64,000 nt of DNA from an uncultured Chlamydiae bacterium (GTDB lineage: Bacteria > Chlamydiota > Chlamydiia > Chlamydiales > SM23-39). This document shows, piece after piece, positions 36,001 through 42,000 of the stretch. Position 1 is the stretch's first letter; every line of letters starts with the position of its first letter. The stretch spans positions 1 through 64,000 of the forward strand of contig CAWHDP010000001.1 of the NCBI GenBank assembly GCA_963828125.1, read 5' to 3'. The position numbers were made by a program.

Positions 36001-39000
36001 GTATTGGCCTGGGTCGTTGTCTACCGACAGGCTAGAGAGGAAGCCTCAGAGGTGATTTCGTGAGCAAGGTCAAAACTTTCTTGTCCCTCAAACTAGACAT
36101 TGGCCATTTATCAGCGCTAGGGCGCCCAGCGCTGATAAATGGCCAATCTCCAGTAAAAGTGATTGTTGAACAACCTCTCAAACAAACTAGGAGTCCACAT
36201 GTCCGTTGCTGCCAGTTCTGATCGACAGCTTGTCTTCTGCCCCCCTCCGCTAGGCAAGCCAGATCCTACTCAACGAAGACCGAGCGAAGGCCCCGATCAT
36301 CGTACCCGTGTCCGTCAATCAGGGGCTAAGGGGAGTACTTGCTGGTATGCTGCTTATAATTTATTACGAGAGCGTTATAAAGACCCAAATACAGCAAATT
36401 TATCAGAAGAAAGACGATTTGAGCAGATTGCATCTTCTTTGCGTAAATCCCTCTCAGCCCATAAGAGCTCGCTCCCAGATGCGGCAGGCTGGCTCAATGC
36501 CGATATCATGGCAACATATTTCCAGACACTGACCAAGGAAACAATAAAAACCCCTCAGATTCAACAAGAGCTACGATCTTTTGATGCATCAACGTCCCCA
36601 AAGGTGTCTTGCTGTTCTGTTCTTCCTGGCTTTCTACAACAAGAGAAATGTGAAAACTTATTCGGTTATCTTTTTTATCTAAAAGTTGCCGGTAGAGAAC
36701 CTTTCTACAATCGATTTTTCGCTACACTGAACATAAATCTTCCAAATTTATTTGAAGCCGCCAAGCAGAAAGATCCAGAGCTAGATCGCTCGTATTGTCA
36801 AGGGAAAAAGTGGGAACAGCTTGATTGGGAAAAGAAAGCCATGTTTTTACATATGTTCGCCAAACAACTAATAGCCGAGCGTTATAACATGCAAGTCTCC
36901 TCATGGCGTCCCTGTCAACTTATTGGGCATCTTATCACCGAATTGCAGGAACGAGGTCCTCTAATAGTGGAGGGGTGCTTTGGAGATAGTTATTATAACG
37001 TTCCAGCTACAAACCTGAACACACAAATTAAAGGCAGAGCGGTTTACGGATGGCTCAAAAAGGATTCGAAAAGTAGCAGGCCTGTCACAGGCCATACTAT
37101 CCTTCTCGTTGGCGCAGAAAAAAATGGGCGACAAGAACTTGTTTACTACATCGATCCGAACGATGAGAGCGACCCATCGCACCCTGAAAAACAGCGAATT
37201 TTTTGCATGTCATACACAAGGCTTACGTCTGCAGAAAATATTTGCGATCATTATGGCGGTTTAGGCAATGATGCACCTGATACTGTCGGATACGCTGTAT
37301 ACAGAAATAAAAATTCACAAACAGGGGATGAAACAGCGCCTTCCTGAGTGAGGAATTGGCGTAAAAGTTCAGTCTCCGAAGGGGACTGAACTTTTACGTT
37401 TTGAGTCATTTTTGGCATAACTGTGAGAAAAACTCATCGATTGCTTGATTGGCCCTTCTGGGGTCTAGGCACTGATTGACTAAAATCGCAAATGCGATTT
37501 TGCCCGCATACCCTGCATATCCTTTCACCAAAGACATGGTTCCATTTTTGGCTCTGATCGACCCTTGGTATTGGGGCAGTGATTCGAGAAAAACGGGAAA
37601 GAGATCCGATTTTTTCATCATGACGAGCATTTCGACGAGTTGGGTCGCTGTGATTAAATTTTTCCTCGAAAGACCCGACCCATCGATCATGTTAAAGCCG
37701 CCGAGTTCGATCTTTTGGGATTTCCAGAAACCGGCCACCGCTCTGACCCCTGCAGCTGTGGACCCTTCCCCTTGCCTTACTTCTCCCATTTTTTTCAAAA
37801 GGTGTTCGGCATAGAGATTAATGCTTTTCTGATTGGTCCAGTGGACAATCTCTCGAATGGTTGGGGAGGAGCTCGTATGAAAAACGGTTCTCTCTTTTTG
37901 CTGCGCCATTTTTTGCTGTCCAACCGCAATGCCTCTCCGCTTGAGCTCCTCCATGAGCCAACTGGCGCAGGCGGCTGCCGGGTCGGGAATCGCGCCCCGA
38001 ATCGCAAATTCATGGGCAGCTGCGGGGATTGTGCCGCGGACAAACTGGGTGGGAGAAAACTCCATGCCATAAATACAGGCATGATCCCCAGATCCTTCGG
38101 GCCCGGTTTTCACCTCATTTTGCAAAACGAGTGTGGGAAGGGGAGGCTCTGTGCGCAAAATCACGGCCTCTTCGCCGACCCTCTTCCCAGGCTGGAAAAC
38201 AAGGGAATACGCATTCTCATGAAAGGATAAAGCAGAAGCTCCCGCGCCGTAATAGTTGCCCAAATCTTCCCACGACCAGCTCGGGACGGCTAACGCCCTT
38301 TCCCACCTCGACGCATCGCCGATCACTTTCCCTACGATGTTTCGGATCCCTAGCTTTTGGACGGCGTCTGCCCAGACCTCAATCTGTTCTTTCCATGAAA
38401 GGGAGCCCGGAATACGGTCCGATCCGAGGCAGGGGTCGCCTCCGCCTCGAATGTAGAGATTGCCTTCGAGCGTCTCATCTAGCACTCCGTCATACTCCAA
38501 ATAGGTTTCAAAACGGCTTTCTGCCCCAAGCAAATGGAGGGCCGCGGTTGTGGTGACGATTTTCATGCAAGAGGCGGGGACGAGGCTCAAAGCACTATTT
38601 TTTTCGAACAAAACTTCGCCTGTTTCACAGTCGAGCGCATACAGGCTTACAATGGCATGATCCAAAGAATCAAATTCTTCGCAAAACAAACGGGGCATAA
38701 ACCAACTCGATGCGAACAGCGCTAGGAGAACGAATTGCATGGGCAGATGATACGATACCGATCTATTTATAGTGAAGTACGTTGCGGAGAATCGACCAAC
38801 GGGGTTCTCCCTTTTCGGGAGGGATGCCGTGGAGCCAATAGTCTGTCATCTTTTTCTTGAAGCCCGATTCTTCTTTGAGCTTCATCCAGTTGTTGAGAAA
38901 AAAGGCAAAATCGGTCGCATGCCGTCGAATCGGATAGGCGAAGAAATTTTTGCCGAGATCGCTTCCGTAATCCATCGCGACGAATTCGGGATGCGAAAGA

Positions 39001-42000
39001 CACCAAATCACAGCGCTTGTTTCAGACCAGACCATCGCATCGACCTCTCCTTGGAGCAAGGGGGTGGGATCGAGGACGTCGGTCACATCTACTTTGGGAA
39101 AATGCCGTTTCCCGATTTCGAAAAGAGCTCCTATAGCGCCGATTTTCAGGCTGCTGTTTTTCTGTACTGCCTTCAGGTTAAAAAATTCTTTTTTCTTCGA
39201 CCTAGGGACGACGAGGACGACGTTATCCTCGTAGTAGGGAAAGGTAAACTGCATTTGGACGAGCCGCTCCTCATTCATAATCACGGAGGACATCCCGATG
39301 TCGAATGCCCCTTCGCTGAGCCCTTTGCCGATATTGTCAAATTCGAAGGGGACGAACTGGAGGCTGCATTCCAAATCGTTGGCCAGTTCATAGGCGTAAG
39401 AGATGTCGAATCCGACGAGTTCGTTCCGATTGTTATAGTACGAATAGGGGATTGAGCTTGGAGAGAATCCCACTTTCAAAATCCTCGAGTCGACGACTTG
39501 GCGGAAGACTCTCGGGATCGCATTGTCGGGAAAAGTTCTCGGATCGCCTGTGTCTCCGAGGGCGAGGATTTCCGCTTTTGCCGGATGATCGATCACTGCG
39601 GAAAGGGTGAGATTCATGTAGAGGTTTTGGTACATGTCCGATGGATGGACGACCGCTTTAAAGGCAAAAATAACGAGGGCGAAGCCAATGAGCGGGGCGC
39701 CGAGGCGAAGGGTGAGCTCTCTCCATCTGACTTGAATGAGGCCATAGTAGGAATAGATGGTGAGCAAGATGAGGGTGAGGACGCTTGCGATGCTCATCAG
39801 GACTTGAAAATTGTAGGTGAAGGATTTCATCTCTAAAAAAAATTGGACGGCTCCGTCTGGAAAGCCGAGTTCGTGAATGAGGTAGAGGATCGAGTTTAAA
39901 TTGCCCGTCGACGATCCGATTGAAAGGGGGACTGTCAAAATCGAGATCAACGTTTGCTCAAAGCCGGTGAATGGGTGGCGGTAGTAATAGGAGATAAATA
40001 GGATGAAAAACAGGGTCATCGCATTCCCAATATGGCCAAAGCTGTAGGCGATGGGGAGGATTGTTTGCCCTTTTTCGTGAAAGCGTTCTTGCGTCCCGTG
40101 TTTTCGGGAGAGTAGTTTCAAATAGACGTTCAGAAAGGGGAGGGCGGTTGTTGTGAGTCCCGTGACAAAGGGCAAAAGACAGACGAATCGGATAGCCTTG
40201 ATCGCCTCTTTGTAGCTCAGAGGAGTCAGTGTGGAAAGGAGCGTGGGTAAAATCCAGAAGGTGACGAAGAGAGAAGAGACAATGAAAGAAAAAACATACA
40301 GCTCTAGTTTAGGGAGCTCTTCAAAGTGGATGGTTCCAACGGCGATCGAAATGTAGACGAAGGCTCCAATGGGGGAGAGGAGGCCGAGCCAGTATAGAAT
40401 CTTTTCAATCGTCTGATTGATCCGTTCGAGCGATGAGATGAGCGGCTCTTTTTTCTCGATATGCATCAGAGCCAGTCCCGAAATCAACCCGAAAATAGCC
40501 ACTGCAGGAGCGATATTGTTTACGATGTCGTAGAATGGGTTTTGCGGAATTAAGTTTGCGATAAAATTTTTTGAGAATTGCGAGGCGAGCTCACTTGAGG
40601 CTTGAGTTTGAATGAGGGGGGAGACGCTCCTTGGGATGAGGGTCGCTAAAAGATAAATCAGGACAAACATGAGCGCCCACAGTGTGGCAAAATAGGGCCA
40701 GCCGGAACGGAATATTTTTTTCCCGATGTCTGGGGTCATCGATCCAAGGCCGTGGATCAGCGAGAAGGTGATGTAGGGGAGAACGGTCATTTGTAAGAGC
40801 ATCGTGTAGGCAGAGCCGATCGGATCGAGTCCGGTCGTGAGCGGTCCGAAAAAAAGGCCGACGAAGATCCCGAGAAGAACGGCGATAAGGACTTGCGTCC
40901 CAATAGAGAGATTGCCCATAATTTTTTCGTATATACCGATTTCCTTTTTTTGTCTTTTCACATAAGATGTCTGTATGGAAGAGCCAATTCTGCAAGCGGT
41001 GGAGGGGGCCGTTCGGGCCGCCGCCTTTTTAAAGAGGGAGGAGAGTCTCCTCTTCATCGCACAATGCGCGGAGCGGATCGCCGCCTGTTTTAAAGGCGGG
41101 CGTAAAATTTTGATTGCCGGCAATGGGGGCAGTCTCTGCGATGCGATGCACTTTGCCGAAGAGCTCACCGGTCAATTTCGTGAAAGACGGCCCGCATTGC
41201 CGGCGATTGCCCTCGCCGATCCGGCCCATATGAGTTGCGTGGCGAACGACATGGGCTATGAGTCGGTTTTTGCCCGCGGGGTTGAAGCGTTCGGCCAGCC
41301 CGGAGATCTCTTTATTGCTCTCACTACGAGCGGCAATTCGCCGAATCTCCTCGCGGCCCTCCGTCAAGCGAAACAAAAGGGGCTTGGCACCATCTCGTTT
41401 CTCGGCAAAACGGGCGGACAGATGAAGGGGCTTTCCGATCTGGAGTGGATCGTCTCCGGCTTTCCTTTCTCCGACCGGATCCAAGAGGCCCACATGGCTG
41501 CCATCCACATCGTCATCGAGAGGGTCGAACAGCATCTGTTCGCTTATGCTCCGCGATAAACTCCTCCTCTTTGGCGAGCGTTGGATCAGACGGTCTCCCT
41601 GGTATTTCGCTCCGTTGAGTTGGGTTTATGCGGGGATCGTGCGGATGCGGAATCAACTGTACGACTGGCGCCTCCTCCCCGTTGAAAAAGTCCCTTGTAC
41701 GGTCGTCAGCGTCGGCAATCTGGTCGTCGGCGGAACCGGGAAGACGCCCTTCGTCCATCTGCTTGCAGCCGCTTTTCCCCACAAAAAAGTGGCGATCCTC
41801 TCGCGCGGCTATGGCGCACTCCCCGACGAGGCGATGCTCCTCGCGAAAAGATTGCCGAACGTGAAAGTGCTTGTCGGTAAAAATAGAGCGAAGCTGGCAA
41901 GGGAAGCTGCAAAAGAGGCTGAACTCCTCATTCTCGATGACGGATTTCAGCATAGGCGGCTTCACCGCGATTTTGACATTGTATTGATGCGGGAAAAAAA

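Follow-up and report, generated by a model that had tools for sequence, protein, structure and literature searches.

Can a membrane domain of the SLC1/DAACS type and a solute-binding domain, joined in one reading frame, act together as a secondary carrier? The question is raised by a gene of an uncultured Chlamydiae bacterium, found in the window analysed here (64,000 nucleotides, positions 1 to 64,000 of contig CAWHDP010000001.1). Its 718-aa product consists of four parts: an SLC1/DAACS fold, an extra transmembrane (TM) helix, an ordered linker, and an SBP_bac_3 domain followed by a tail.

The fusion gene and its surroundings

The gene (718 codons and a TAA stop) lies at 38763..40919. The genome-wide survey's note had described a single frame of 718 aa with both domains at this site, which stands, and translation assigns it to the minus strand, as it does all protein features below; the plus strand across the same interval is interrupted by stops throughout. 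By Pfam, the single protein carries SDF at residues 8-367 (1.7e-36; 126.5 bits, where the cut-off is 27.9) as well as SBP_bac_3 at residues 481-696 (1.6e-22). We take the ATG at 40919 as the true start, because a longer frame reaching the GTG at 41168 would overlap the divergent SIS_2 gene (40975..41559, plus strand) and because homologues begin at the same first Met. The 55 bp between the two genes (40920..40974) presumably hold the promoter region, and no consensus promoter was scored within them.

Downstream, a gene for an S13 D-Ala-D-Ala carboxypeptidase (37406..38740, minus strand; Pfam Peptidase_S13, 1.7e-68) follows 22 bp past the fusion-gene stop. No terminator-like site was found in this gap, and co-transcription of the two genes is possible, but the carboxypeptidase gene is not a recurrent neighbour among 69 loci. 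At these loci the commonest neighbour occurred just six times, ABC genes were not recurrent beside the fusion gene, and LpxK, suggested earlier as part of a conserved neighbourhood, was common to only three. In the window's own genome (95% complete) just two BPD_transp_1 genes were found, both of the OppB/OppC type, and none for an ABC permease of polar amino acids. The fusion protein is thus self-contained, without conserved partner genes.

Constancy of the fusion

As the survey had proposed, the joining of the two domains is not an artefact of gene calling. Of the 120 top-scoring database proteins, 119 had both Pfam families and 115 of the 120 measured 708-752 aa, and among the 150 best cluster representatives 140 were 676-765 aa long and matched from the membrane domain through the tail. 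Similarly, 73 of 79 genome loci extended to at least residue 714, while the other six stopped earlier, mostly at or near a contig end. All members of 14 Atlas clusters (100%) combined SDF with SBP_bac_3. All 55 short matches to the binding part with E<=1e-19 appeared to be pieces of members of this fused family; the nine examined in full all had the tail, and none had an N-terminal signal peptide.

At E<=1e-30 the family comprises 476 clusters (50% identity) from many phyla, with full length and intact frames conserved at 25-71% identity, and of 200 genomes sampled from the bacterium's own phylum, 54 had the fusion. Most members come from free-living phyla, so the suggested link to a host-dependent bacterium is too narrow. 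The four parts always occur together, and the fusion is obligate, ancient and widespread. One genome contained a membrane-domain-only relative ending after TM9, from which the membrane part may be able to stand alone.

Fold and lost sites of the membrane domain

Residues 3-394 (39738..40913) form a complete SLC1/DAACS elevator fold, TM1-8 with hairpins HP1 and HP2, according to Pfam, profile and VIA-align comparisons. With residues 1-394 of the model, VIA-align gave Z 36.5 for EAAT3 (8ctc; rmsd 2.5 A over 373 residues) and 34.9 for GltPh (6uwl). GltTk, EAAT1-3, ASCT2 and the ancestral uncoupled aspartate transporter (9bgy/9bgz) share this fold with GltPh and the fusion protein (Z 29-36.5); the latter retains scaffold and IPxNPF motif, and its SDF score exceeds the Pfam cut-off. 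The family profile matched 9bgz at 9.2e-38 and GltPh at about 1e-26. Six of the seven top-ranked structure matches represented intermediate outward-facing states (Z 34.4-36.5), whereas plain outward-facing states among those listed scored 26-31.7.

The residues that define canonical members are missing, however. At the site of the TM7 motif N-M-D-G-T, alignments to 9bgz and GltTk place G-H-I-G-N (residues 295-299, 40023..40037), with only the Gly kept: among 148 sequences, N at 295 and D/E at 297 never occurred, while G at 298 was found in 136. NMDG is therefore absent from the whole set, including the equivalents of N310 and D312 (148/148). Ligands of Na1 and Na3 are likewise lacking; the equivalents of T92 and S93 are Leu and Trp (S/T in 7/148 and 2/148, respectively), and that of D405 is hydrophobic by extrapolation. 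Hairpin HP2 (residues 319-350, 39870..39965), the extracellular gate of canonical members, has a tip shorter than in solved transporters, by 3 residues here and by 6 in the non-chlamydial clade, as judged from a 6-column gap against 9bgz in the profile alignment and a 3-residue indel between the clades. With canonical Na+ sites and NMDG motif lost, the protein is not an ion symporter of the GltP/GltPh type, and the labels "GltP-type" and "glutamate/aspartate-like" originally attached to it have to be dropped. The driving force could be H+ acting at other residues, or there could be none, with intracellular metabolic trapping. A profile of the TM7-HP2-TM8/TM9 region matched no solved DAACS protein by sequence, and given this absence the membrane domain could have another activity, or none. 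Among 45 sequences 18 columns are invariant, and the unchanging residues of the membrane part include Gly, Pro, Asn and Trp. A canonical SDF member of 443 aa (395.6 bits) is also encoded in the same genome.

The fold ends with TM8 (residues 356-391, 39747..39854), a helix in the model, whose end would be cytoplasmic. Two additional hydrophobic stretches had been proposed after the SDF match. The first, 367-395, is TM8 itself, because superposition on EAAT3 and GltPh extends to residues 391-394; the second is indeed additional. This ninth helix (residues 399-423, 39651..39725; pLDDT 95-96, mean hydropathy 1.85 over 22 residues) would return the chain to the periplasm, as hydropathy and loop charge suggest. 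For residues 3-394 we assume the N-in/C-in topology of the SLC1/DAACS fold. In 146 of the 148 sequences the TM8-TM9 loop carries a net positive charge (mean K+R 3.04, mean D+E 0.26 over the set), as does the N-terminus in 127; the segment following TM9 is neutral or acidic (net positive in only 47). By this charge distribution, and given the assumed topology, the binding domain is predicted to be periplasmic and to sit over the membrane domain, in agreement with the extracytoplasmic location originally proposed.

The binding domain and its connection to the membrane domain

The class-II solute-binding domain (SBP_bac_3; residues 471-697, 38829..39509), identified by Pfam and by sequence and fold matches, is in a closed form in the model. 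Its closest relatives are the Desulfonauticus binding protein 9e2b, solved with bound L-Trp (3.8e-22 and 26% identity by sequence, TMt 0.82 by fold), and AncCDT-1/cyclohexadienyl dehydratase (AncCDT-1, 5t0w: Z 27.6, rmsd 1.5 A over 223 residues). Unlike the fusion protein, these are free periplasmic proteins without tail or membrane domain. Closed, ligand-bound homologues fit at TMt 0.82-0.90, compared with 0.56 for open apo forms. In HisJ, an Arg binds the ligand carboxylate and an Asp the alpha-ammonium group. Of 148 sequences, 112 keep the equivalent Arg and 116 have Ser/Thr at the Asp position; the fusion protein has Ser there, as does 9e2b. From model and alignment the domain looks competent for ligand, but replacement of the HisJ-type Asp leaves it less than certain that the ligand is an amino acid.

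The full-length AlphaFold model (pLDDT 92.2, pTM 0.87) predicts both domains to be confidently placed relative to each other. Between TM9 and the binding domain lies an ordered linker (residues 424-470, 39510..39650; pLDDT 86-95 in the full-length model), in which residues 441-450 drop to pLDDT 78 when the membrane part is omitted. The C-terminal tail motif PRWSILRNVLHY (residues 706-717, 38769..38804), recognized from column counts, cross-phylum alignment and pLDDT, similarly reaches pLDDT 88 with the membrane domain and 68 without it. Its pattern, PRWSxxRxVLxW, is nearly universal and present across phyla, and is the most conserved stretch in the fusion family (R707 in 139/148 sequences, W708 in 144/148).

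The two halves show correlated pairwise distances (r 0.79). Predicted pocket positions of both domains co-vary over and above the remainder of the protein, with a partial r of 0.128, against -0.03 +/- 0.046 for entropy-matched sets, a small effect obtained with related sequences and with positions chosen from contact lists; 1 of 300 controls reached 0.128, and in 7 of 7 variants, each clade taken separately included, the value fell in the top 0-2% of controls. This suggests that the binding and membrane domains are coupled.

A model of tethered uptake and its alternatives

We favour an elevator-type secondary carrier with a tethered binding domain, at a probability of roughly 0.55. According to this model, the binding domain would capture a small ligand with a carboxylate group, probably an amino acid or similar compound, and close, held against the transporter by linker and tail. 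The ligand would then pass to a remodelled site bordered by HP1, HP2, TM7 and TM8, and be moved inward by the transport domain as an elevator. The survey had offered the same general reading, and it remains the best one: the architecture is real, the fusion is constant over hundreds of clusters and the binding domain appears extracytoplasmic.

It is rather unlikely, though worth weighing, that the binding domain is instead a regulator which, on sensing a ligand in the periplasm, opens or locks by allostery a carrier that is otherwise autonomous, without handing over substrate. SBP_bac_3 domains are sensors in other fused proteins (BvgS, MltF, GluR0), and MltF is among the NCBIfam matches of the fusion protein; a rigid linker and conserved tail would suit mechanical coupling, and the membrane-domain-only relative exists. 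However, the carrier domain is devoid of the ion sites and full-length HP2 that make canonical members autonomous, and pocket covariation is expected if both domains see one molecule, although substrate-activated gating would predict it likewise. A decayed carrier, with a membrane domain devoid of transport activity and some other role for the protein, would account for the lost canonical motifs and the lack of core sequence similarity to solved DAACS proteins, but seems improbable for a family that kept full length, invariant membrane residues and intact frames across phyla.

Only slight weight can be given to a ligand-gated channel or uniporter, in which closure of the binding domain would drive the SLC1 fold into an intermediate anion-conducting state. 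SLC1 proteins do have an uncoupled anion conductance, the model fits intermediate outward-facing states best and the family is without ion-coupling residues; yet the conformation of an AlphaFold model is no evidence for function, and a physiological context is lacking. If true, it would be a bacterial counterpart of the glutamate-receptor design on a different pore. Membrane-anchored binding proteins exist, and cyclohexadienyl dehydratases and their ancestors rank among the closest structures, so the membrane domain might only tether a binding domain that feeds a separate ABC importer or acts as a cyclohexadienyl-dehydratase-like enzyme. We consider this very improbable: the genome lacks an ABC permease of polar amino acids, ABC genes do not recur in the neighbourhoods, a nine-helix anchor would not retain invariant residues throughout, and the protein matched best binds tryptophan rather than acting as an enzyme.

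Comparison with known systems

TRAP (SiaPQM), TTT and TAXI-GltS systems likewise dispense with an ATPase and pair a membrane part of the elevator type with a class-II binding module outside the cytoplasm. Their membrane parts (DctM/DctQ, TctA, GltS) are unrelated to SDF, and their binding modules are DctP, TctC and TAXI, whereas SBP_bac_3 is used here. A 2025 paper (PMC12344293) describes elevator-type carriers as those that recruit binding proteins, and covalent TAXI-GltS fusions as rare (14 among about 10,000 GltS entries). In the present family, in contrast, fusion is the rule, the C-terminal tail is conserved and no sodium site is recognisable. From canonical SLC1/DAACS transporters the protein also differs in its ninth helix, periplasmic binding domain and tail. 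Literature searches for an SDF and SBP_bac_3 fusion carrier returned no paper, only automatic annotations, consistent with the survey's statement that it is undescribed. Most likely the protein is an ATP-free, self-contained uptake system of a kind absent from print.

Covalent tethering of SBP_bac_3 to a translocator is also known from ABC importers of the GlnPQ type (6h30 was among the matches), but the fusion protein has neither BPD_transp_1 nor an ATPase, and its SBP_bac_3 domain follows the membrane part in the chain and is rigidly linked to it. With the prokaryotic and eukaryotic ionotropic glutamate receptors (GluR0/iGluR) it shares a design in which a class-II binding domain is joined to a device for membrane transport; in the fusion protein this device has an SLC1 fold, not a potassium-channel-like pore. 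One family member (P0112) carries PF10613 (Lig_chan-Glu_bd).

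Gene, domains and reality of the fusion

The fused gene occupies 38763..40919 on the minus strand of the window as a single frame of 718 amino acids, and the plus strand at this site is blocked by stop codons. Upstream, the frame stays open as far as a GTG at 41168. The extension would overlap a divergently transcribed gene with a Pfam SIS_2 match (40975..41559), and homologues share the first Met of the fused protein. From this, it follows that the ATG at 40919, separated from the SIS_2 gene by 55 bp, is the start. Two Pfam families match the product, SDF (PF00375) at residues 8-367 (1.7e-36, 126.5 bits against a cut-off of 27.9) and SBP_bac_3 at residues 481-696 (1.6e-22, 80.1 bits against 26.4). 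No NCBIfam model reached its cut-off, the best being the DctA subfamily (61.8 bits against 513); thus the architecture is not covered by any curated family.

The fusion is not an artefact, in agreement with what the genome-wide survey's note had claimed. A search with the full-length protein gave 161 proteins, and among the best 120 of them (71% down to 26% identity) both Pfam families were present in 119, while 115 were 708-752 amino acids long. Among 1.84 billion cluster representatives, searched exhaustively with HMMER, 476 clusters matched at E<=1e-30; of these, 140 of the 150 best representatives measured 676-765 amino acids and were matched from the membrane part through the tail. Each of 14 large clusters in the ESM Atlas was 100% SDF + SBP_bac_3. 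When only the binding part was used as a query, 56 short matches appeared, 55 of them at E<=1e-19, with weaker next matches at 2e-11 and 1.7e-4. The nine short matches that were read over their whole length all include the tail and begin within the fused protein, indicative of truncated or frameshifted gene calls, and no secreted stand-alone binding domain was seen among those read. In the database proteins P0287, P0288, P0290, P0297, P0291, P0294 and P0314, the calls begin within the binding domain or TM7/HP2 and lie on long contigs (22-389 kb), a sign that several metagenome assemblies may contain frameshifts or wrongly called starts.

Membrane domain

By sequence and fold the fused protein belongs to the SDF superfamily, but it fails the functional signatures of that family. 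The profile of its relatives matched the ancestral uncoupled aspartate transporter 9bgz at E 9.2e-38, with the scaffold well conserved. In residue-level alignments to 9bgz and GltTk, the TM7 signature N-M-D-G-T is replaced by G-H-I-G-N. Within our alignment of 148 family members, N[ML]DG occurred in the TM7 region of 0/148, the equivalent of N310 was N in 0/148, and that of D312 was D or E in 0/148. The SLC1 sodium-site residues, as given in passages of a 2025 study (PMC12668577), are [S/T]92-93, N310, [M/S]311, [D/E]312 and [D/E]405. Of these, the Na3 ligands T92/S93 align with L80 and W81 (W in 123/148), and S or T was present at the 92 equivalent in seven and at the 93 equivalent in two of the 148 sequences. 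The 405 equivalent, V380 as extrapolated from the ends of the structural alignment, was D, E or N in none of them.

In TM8, the GltPh substrate ligands D394, R397 and N401 would correspond to Y369, Q372 and S376, positions extrapolated from the structural-alignment ends and not from a residue-level alignment; at 372, set in this way, R was found in 1/148. The TM8 residues can be placed only by such extrapolation, as a TM7-HP2-TM8-TM9 profile gave no SLC1/DAACS match at E<=1 among solved structures. The Ser-rich tip of HP1 is not retained, and the HP2 tip is shorter by six residues in most clades and by three in the chlamydial clade. With these signatures lost, neither the substrate nor the coupling ion of GltP/GltPh can be transferred to the fused protein. 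The earlier label of a GltP-type transporter therefore does not hold, NMDG being absent from all 148 sequences and the sodium-site residues being gone.

An ordinary SDF protein of 443 amino acids (395.6 bits) is encoded in the same genome. A third SDF-family match there (G000:C2:881096-881821, DNA stretch L084) lies in a 404-aa frame and covers only profile positions 145-386 (94.5 bits); it would be another divergent member of the SDF family.

Structure model and topology

The AlphaFold2 model of the full-length protein, built on the 148 sequences, had a mean pLDDT of 92.2 and a pTM of 0.87. In this model, residues 1-394 superpose on EAAT3 (8ctc; Z 36.5, rmsd 2.5 A over 373 residues), GltPh (6uwl; Z 34.9) and the ancestral uncoupled transporter 9bgy (Z 34.0), and intermediate outward-facing states account for six of the seven best structural matches. 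The SLC1 architecture is present in the model, with eight transmembrane helices and two re-entrant hairpins arranged in a scaffold and a transport domain. Since residues 1-394 superpose on SLC1, the stretch 367-395, previously read as extra hydrophobic sequence, belongs to the SLC1 fold as TM8. Behind it, the model predicts a single further helix (TM9, 399-423), followed by a confidently modelled linker (424-470, pLDDT 86-95), a two-lobe binding domain (471-697) and, at the C-terminal end, the short tail PRWSILRNVLHY. No segment of the family is better conserved than this tail, with R707 in 139 and W708 in 144 of 148 members; W695 is found in all 148.

Folded alone, the binding part retained a domain pLDDT of 94-98. 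When the membrane part was absent, the pLDDT dropped from 88 to 68 in the tail and from 95 to 78 at the linker start (alignments of 148 vs 38 rows), which hints that both segments may lean on the membrane part. A complex prediction for residues 1-430 and 468-718 as separate chains scored 0.00 in two runs without controls and counts neither way.

In SLC1 proteins, as in the GltPh structures, both termini are cytoplasmic, so that with a ninth helix the remaining chain would lie outside. The 12-residue loop between TM8 and TM9 averages 3.04 K+R vs 0.26 D+E, with a net positive charge in 146/148 sequences. The N-terminus is net positive in 127/148, and the 22 residues after TM9 in only 47/148. TM9 itself (22 residues) has a mean hydropathy of 1.85. 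This positive-inside charge pattern, together with the hydrophobic TM9, points to a periplasmic location of the binding domain. A cytoplasmic regulatory domain, the concern raised in the survey's note, is unlikely.

Binding domain and covariation of the two sites

The modelled binding domain resembles closed, ligand-bound proteins (TMt 0.82-0.90; 9e2b with L-tryptophan, TMt 0.82), while open forms gave a TMt of only 0.56. Its match to AncCDT-1 had a Z of 27.6 and an rmsd of 1.5 A over 223 residues. R552 stands at the position equivalent to HisJ R77, the Arg binding the ligand carboxylate, and R is found in this column in 112/148 sequences. The ligand likely carries a carboxylate. S632 is equivalent to HisJ D161, the Asp that holds the ligand's alpha-ammonium group, and its column contains S or T in 116/148 and D in 5/148. 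In the alignment, Ser occupies this position in the tryptophan-binding 9e2b, too. The other pocket columns differ between clades, which suits a family with several specificities. Because of these variable columns, and as no paper on the 9e2b structure was found, the ligand is not readable from the pocket residues.

Pairwise distances in the two halves of the fused protein correlate with r 0.79, which makes domain swapping less likely. Covariation between the sites was assessed beyond the divergence of the remaining protein, using 24 presumed SLC1 substrate-site columns (HP1 tip, TM7, HP2 tip and TM8) and 11 presumed pocket columns, homologous to HisJ/LAO ligand contacts. The partial correlation was 0.128, against -0.03 +/- 0.046 for 300 entropy-matched position sets, one of which reached it. 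It stayed in the top 0-2% across all seven variants tried (block-shift controls, indel-adjacent columns dropped, each of the two main clades alone). The effect is small and the sequences are related, and we treat it as a hint in favour of both sites seeing the same molecule or touching.

Partners and local context

Neighbouring genes were compared at 69 loci. The commonest neighbour was a TLC/MFS-like transporter (6/69), followed by DUF3192 (4), LpxK (3) and aspartate-semialdehyde dehydrogenase (2), and ABC components were not found among the recurrent neighbours. No neighbour occurred at more than 6 of the 69 loci, and the gene neighbourhood is uninformative as a clue to the substrate. In the window, a gene for an S13 D-Ala-D-Ala carboxypeptidase (37406-38740, minus strand) begins 22 bp past the stop of the fused gene. 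No terminator-like site was found in this 22-bp gap, and co-transcription of the two genes is possible in this genome alone. The S13 peptidase is not recurrent beside the relatives at the 69 loci, and the idea of a connection with D-Ala or peptidoglycan recycling was dropped for that reason. Between the S13 gene and an MFS transporter gene lies a 394-aa frame (36163-37347, plus strand) that Pfam leaves unmatched at E<=1e-5.

The genome from which the window comes (2.37 Mb, 95% complete) contains only two BPD_transp_1 genes, both of the OppB/OppC type, and a polar-amino-acid ABC permease was not found in it. Consequently, the binding domain has no ABC importer to serve here. A second SBP_bac_3 protein of this genome is free-standing (321-aa frame, G000:C2:1266687-1267319, or L081:1486-2451 on the minus strand of DNA stretch L081) and is encoded between the genes for glycogen phosphorylase and ferrochelatase; with such a permease missing from the genome, it is an orphan.

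A proposed carrier model and its alternatives

We propose that the fused protein is an elevator carrier with a tethered binding domain, a function to which we assign a probability of roughly 0.55. According to this model, the periplasmic domain would capture the ligand and then close. TM9, the ordered linker and the R-W tail would hold the closed domain in a fixed pose, in which it could deliver the ligand to the remodelled HP1/HP2/TM7/TM8 site, from which the transport domain would then move it inward. The model takes up the observed architecture, fold, topology pattern, constant fusion and absence of partners; delivery, direction and energy source are what we infer.

A further and more tentative suggestion is that the rigidly, covalently attached binding domain replaces the role that sodium plays in every studied SLC1 transporter. 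As the ion sites and NMDG are gone and HP2 is shortened, high affinity, gating and direction would be owed to the closing of the periplasmic domain. If this rather doubtful extension were true, closure would be transmitted via TM9, the ordered linker and the invariant R-W tail, and besides Na+ and H+ coupling the glutamate-transporter fold would have a third mode, that of a binding-protein-coupled elevator.

Several alternatives have to be weighed against the tethered-domain carrier. The most serious of them, to which we give a minor though real chance, is that the binding domain acts as a regulator on an autonomous carrier. That the membrane domain is a decayed carrier seems improbable. Slightly less probable still is a ligand-gated conductance through an intermediate state of the SLC1 fold, a state represented among the best structural matches of the model. 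Finally, the membrane part might merely anchor a binding domain that serves an ABC system or a periplasmic enzyme. This is the least probable of the four, and for an ABC system we rejected it, as the window's genome has no suitable permease.

Comparison with known systems

The tethered-domain carrier would work by analogy with the TRAP, TTT and TAXI-GltS systems, and neither of its parts is homologous to theirs. As in those systems, the membrane component is of the elevator type (SLC1 fold), there is no ATPase (Pfam finds only SDF and SBP_bac_3), and the binding module probably resides on the outer face of the membrane, as judged from the charges. Unlike in those systems, Pfam and NCBIfam detect no DctP/DctQM, TctABC or TAXI/GltS homology in the fused protein. 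It also differs from a GlnPQ-type ABC importer, as it contains no BPD_transp_1 domain and has no ABC ATPase partner among the recurrent neighbours.

Before the 2025 description of TAXI-GltS, TRAP and TTT were the sole carriers known to rely on binding proteins in an ATP-free manner (PMC12344293); that paper calls for further classes, with which it could be tested whether it is the elevator mechanism that lets a carrier recruit a binding protein. The fused family would be such a further class of binding-protein-dependent elevator carriers. No other elevator fold is understood as well as the one it is built on, with dozens of structures solved in defined states, and because the partner is fused in every member, stoichiometry and docking are set by the gene. 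The loss of all known ion-coupling residues makes one ask what allows an SLC1 fold to function in their absence, a question that ties the family to the recent work on an uncoupled ancestral aspartate transporter (passages of PMC12668577).

No paper on an SDF-binding-protein fusion was found in the full-text literature, excluding subscription journals, TCDB and InterPro, and the passages seen of the phylogenetic study of glutamate transporters (PMC12668577) and of a 2021 review of multicomponent transporters (PMC8276074) do not mention one. Automatic database annotations already name both domains.

Distribution and paralogues

At least 587 stretches encoding relatives were found in contigs from one genome per species. 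The 79 loci kept from these belong to Chlamydiota, Acidobacteriota, Myxococcota, delta-proteobacteria, Planctomycetes, Cyanobacteria and Spirochaetes, and also to Alpha-, Beta- and Gammaproteobacteria, Bacteroidales, Gemmatimonadota, Entotheonella and others. With 476 clusters and many phyla available, a well-behaved homologue should be easy to sample. In the window's own phylum, a full-length copy was present in 54 of 200 sampled genomes and 31 of 114 genera. The pattern was patchy: 35/36 genomes in one family, 9/23 in another and 5/29 in the window's own family had a copy, and none was found in the sampled genomes of three chlamydial families (0/28, 0/21 and 0/14).

Several sampled chlamydial genomes contain two paralogues. 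At G173:C3:19263-23588 the fused genes are in tandem; one is intact, with a 742-aa frame, and the second is seemingly broken up, one piece spanning residues 4-188 and another 186-716. One chlamydial genome encodes a membrane-only relative of 430 amino acids (L087:2450-3742, on contig G108:C29, minus strand), which matches SDF with 153.9 bits and is 31% identical over residues 8-416. NMDG is missing from this relative, which ends a few residues past TM9, and a gene for an M16 peptidase follows; either it lost the binding domain secondarily or it is an unfused form. On the same DNA stretch (L087:4387-6999, plus strand), the gene for the large subunit of ribonucleotide reductase is split by Hint_2 and LAGLIDADG_3 domains, indicative of an intein.
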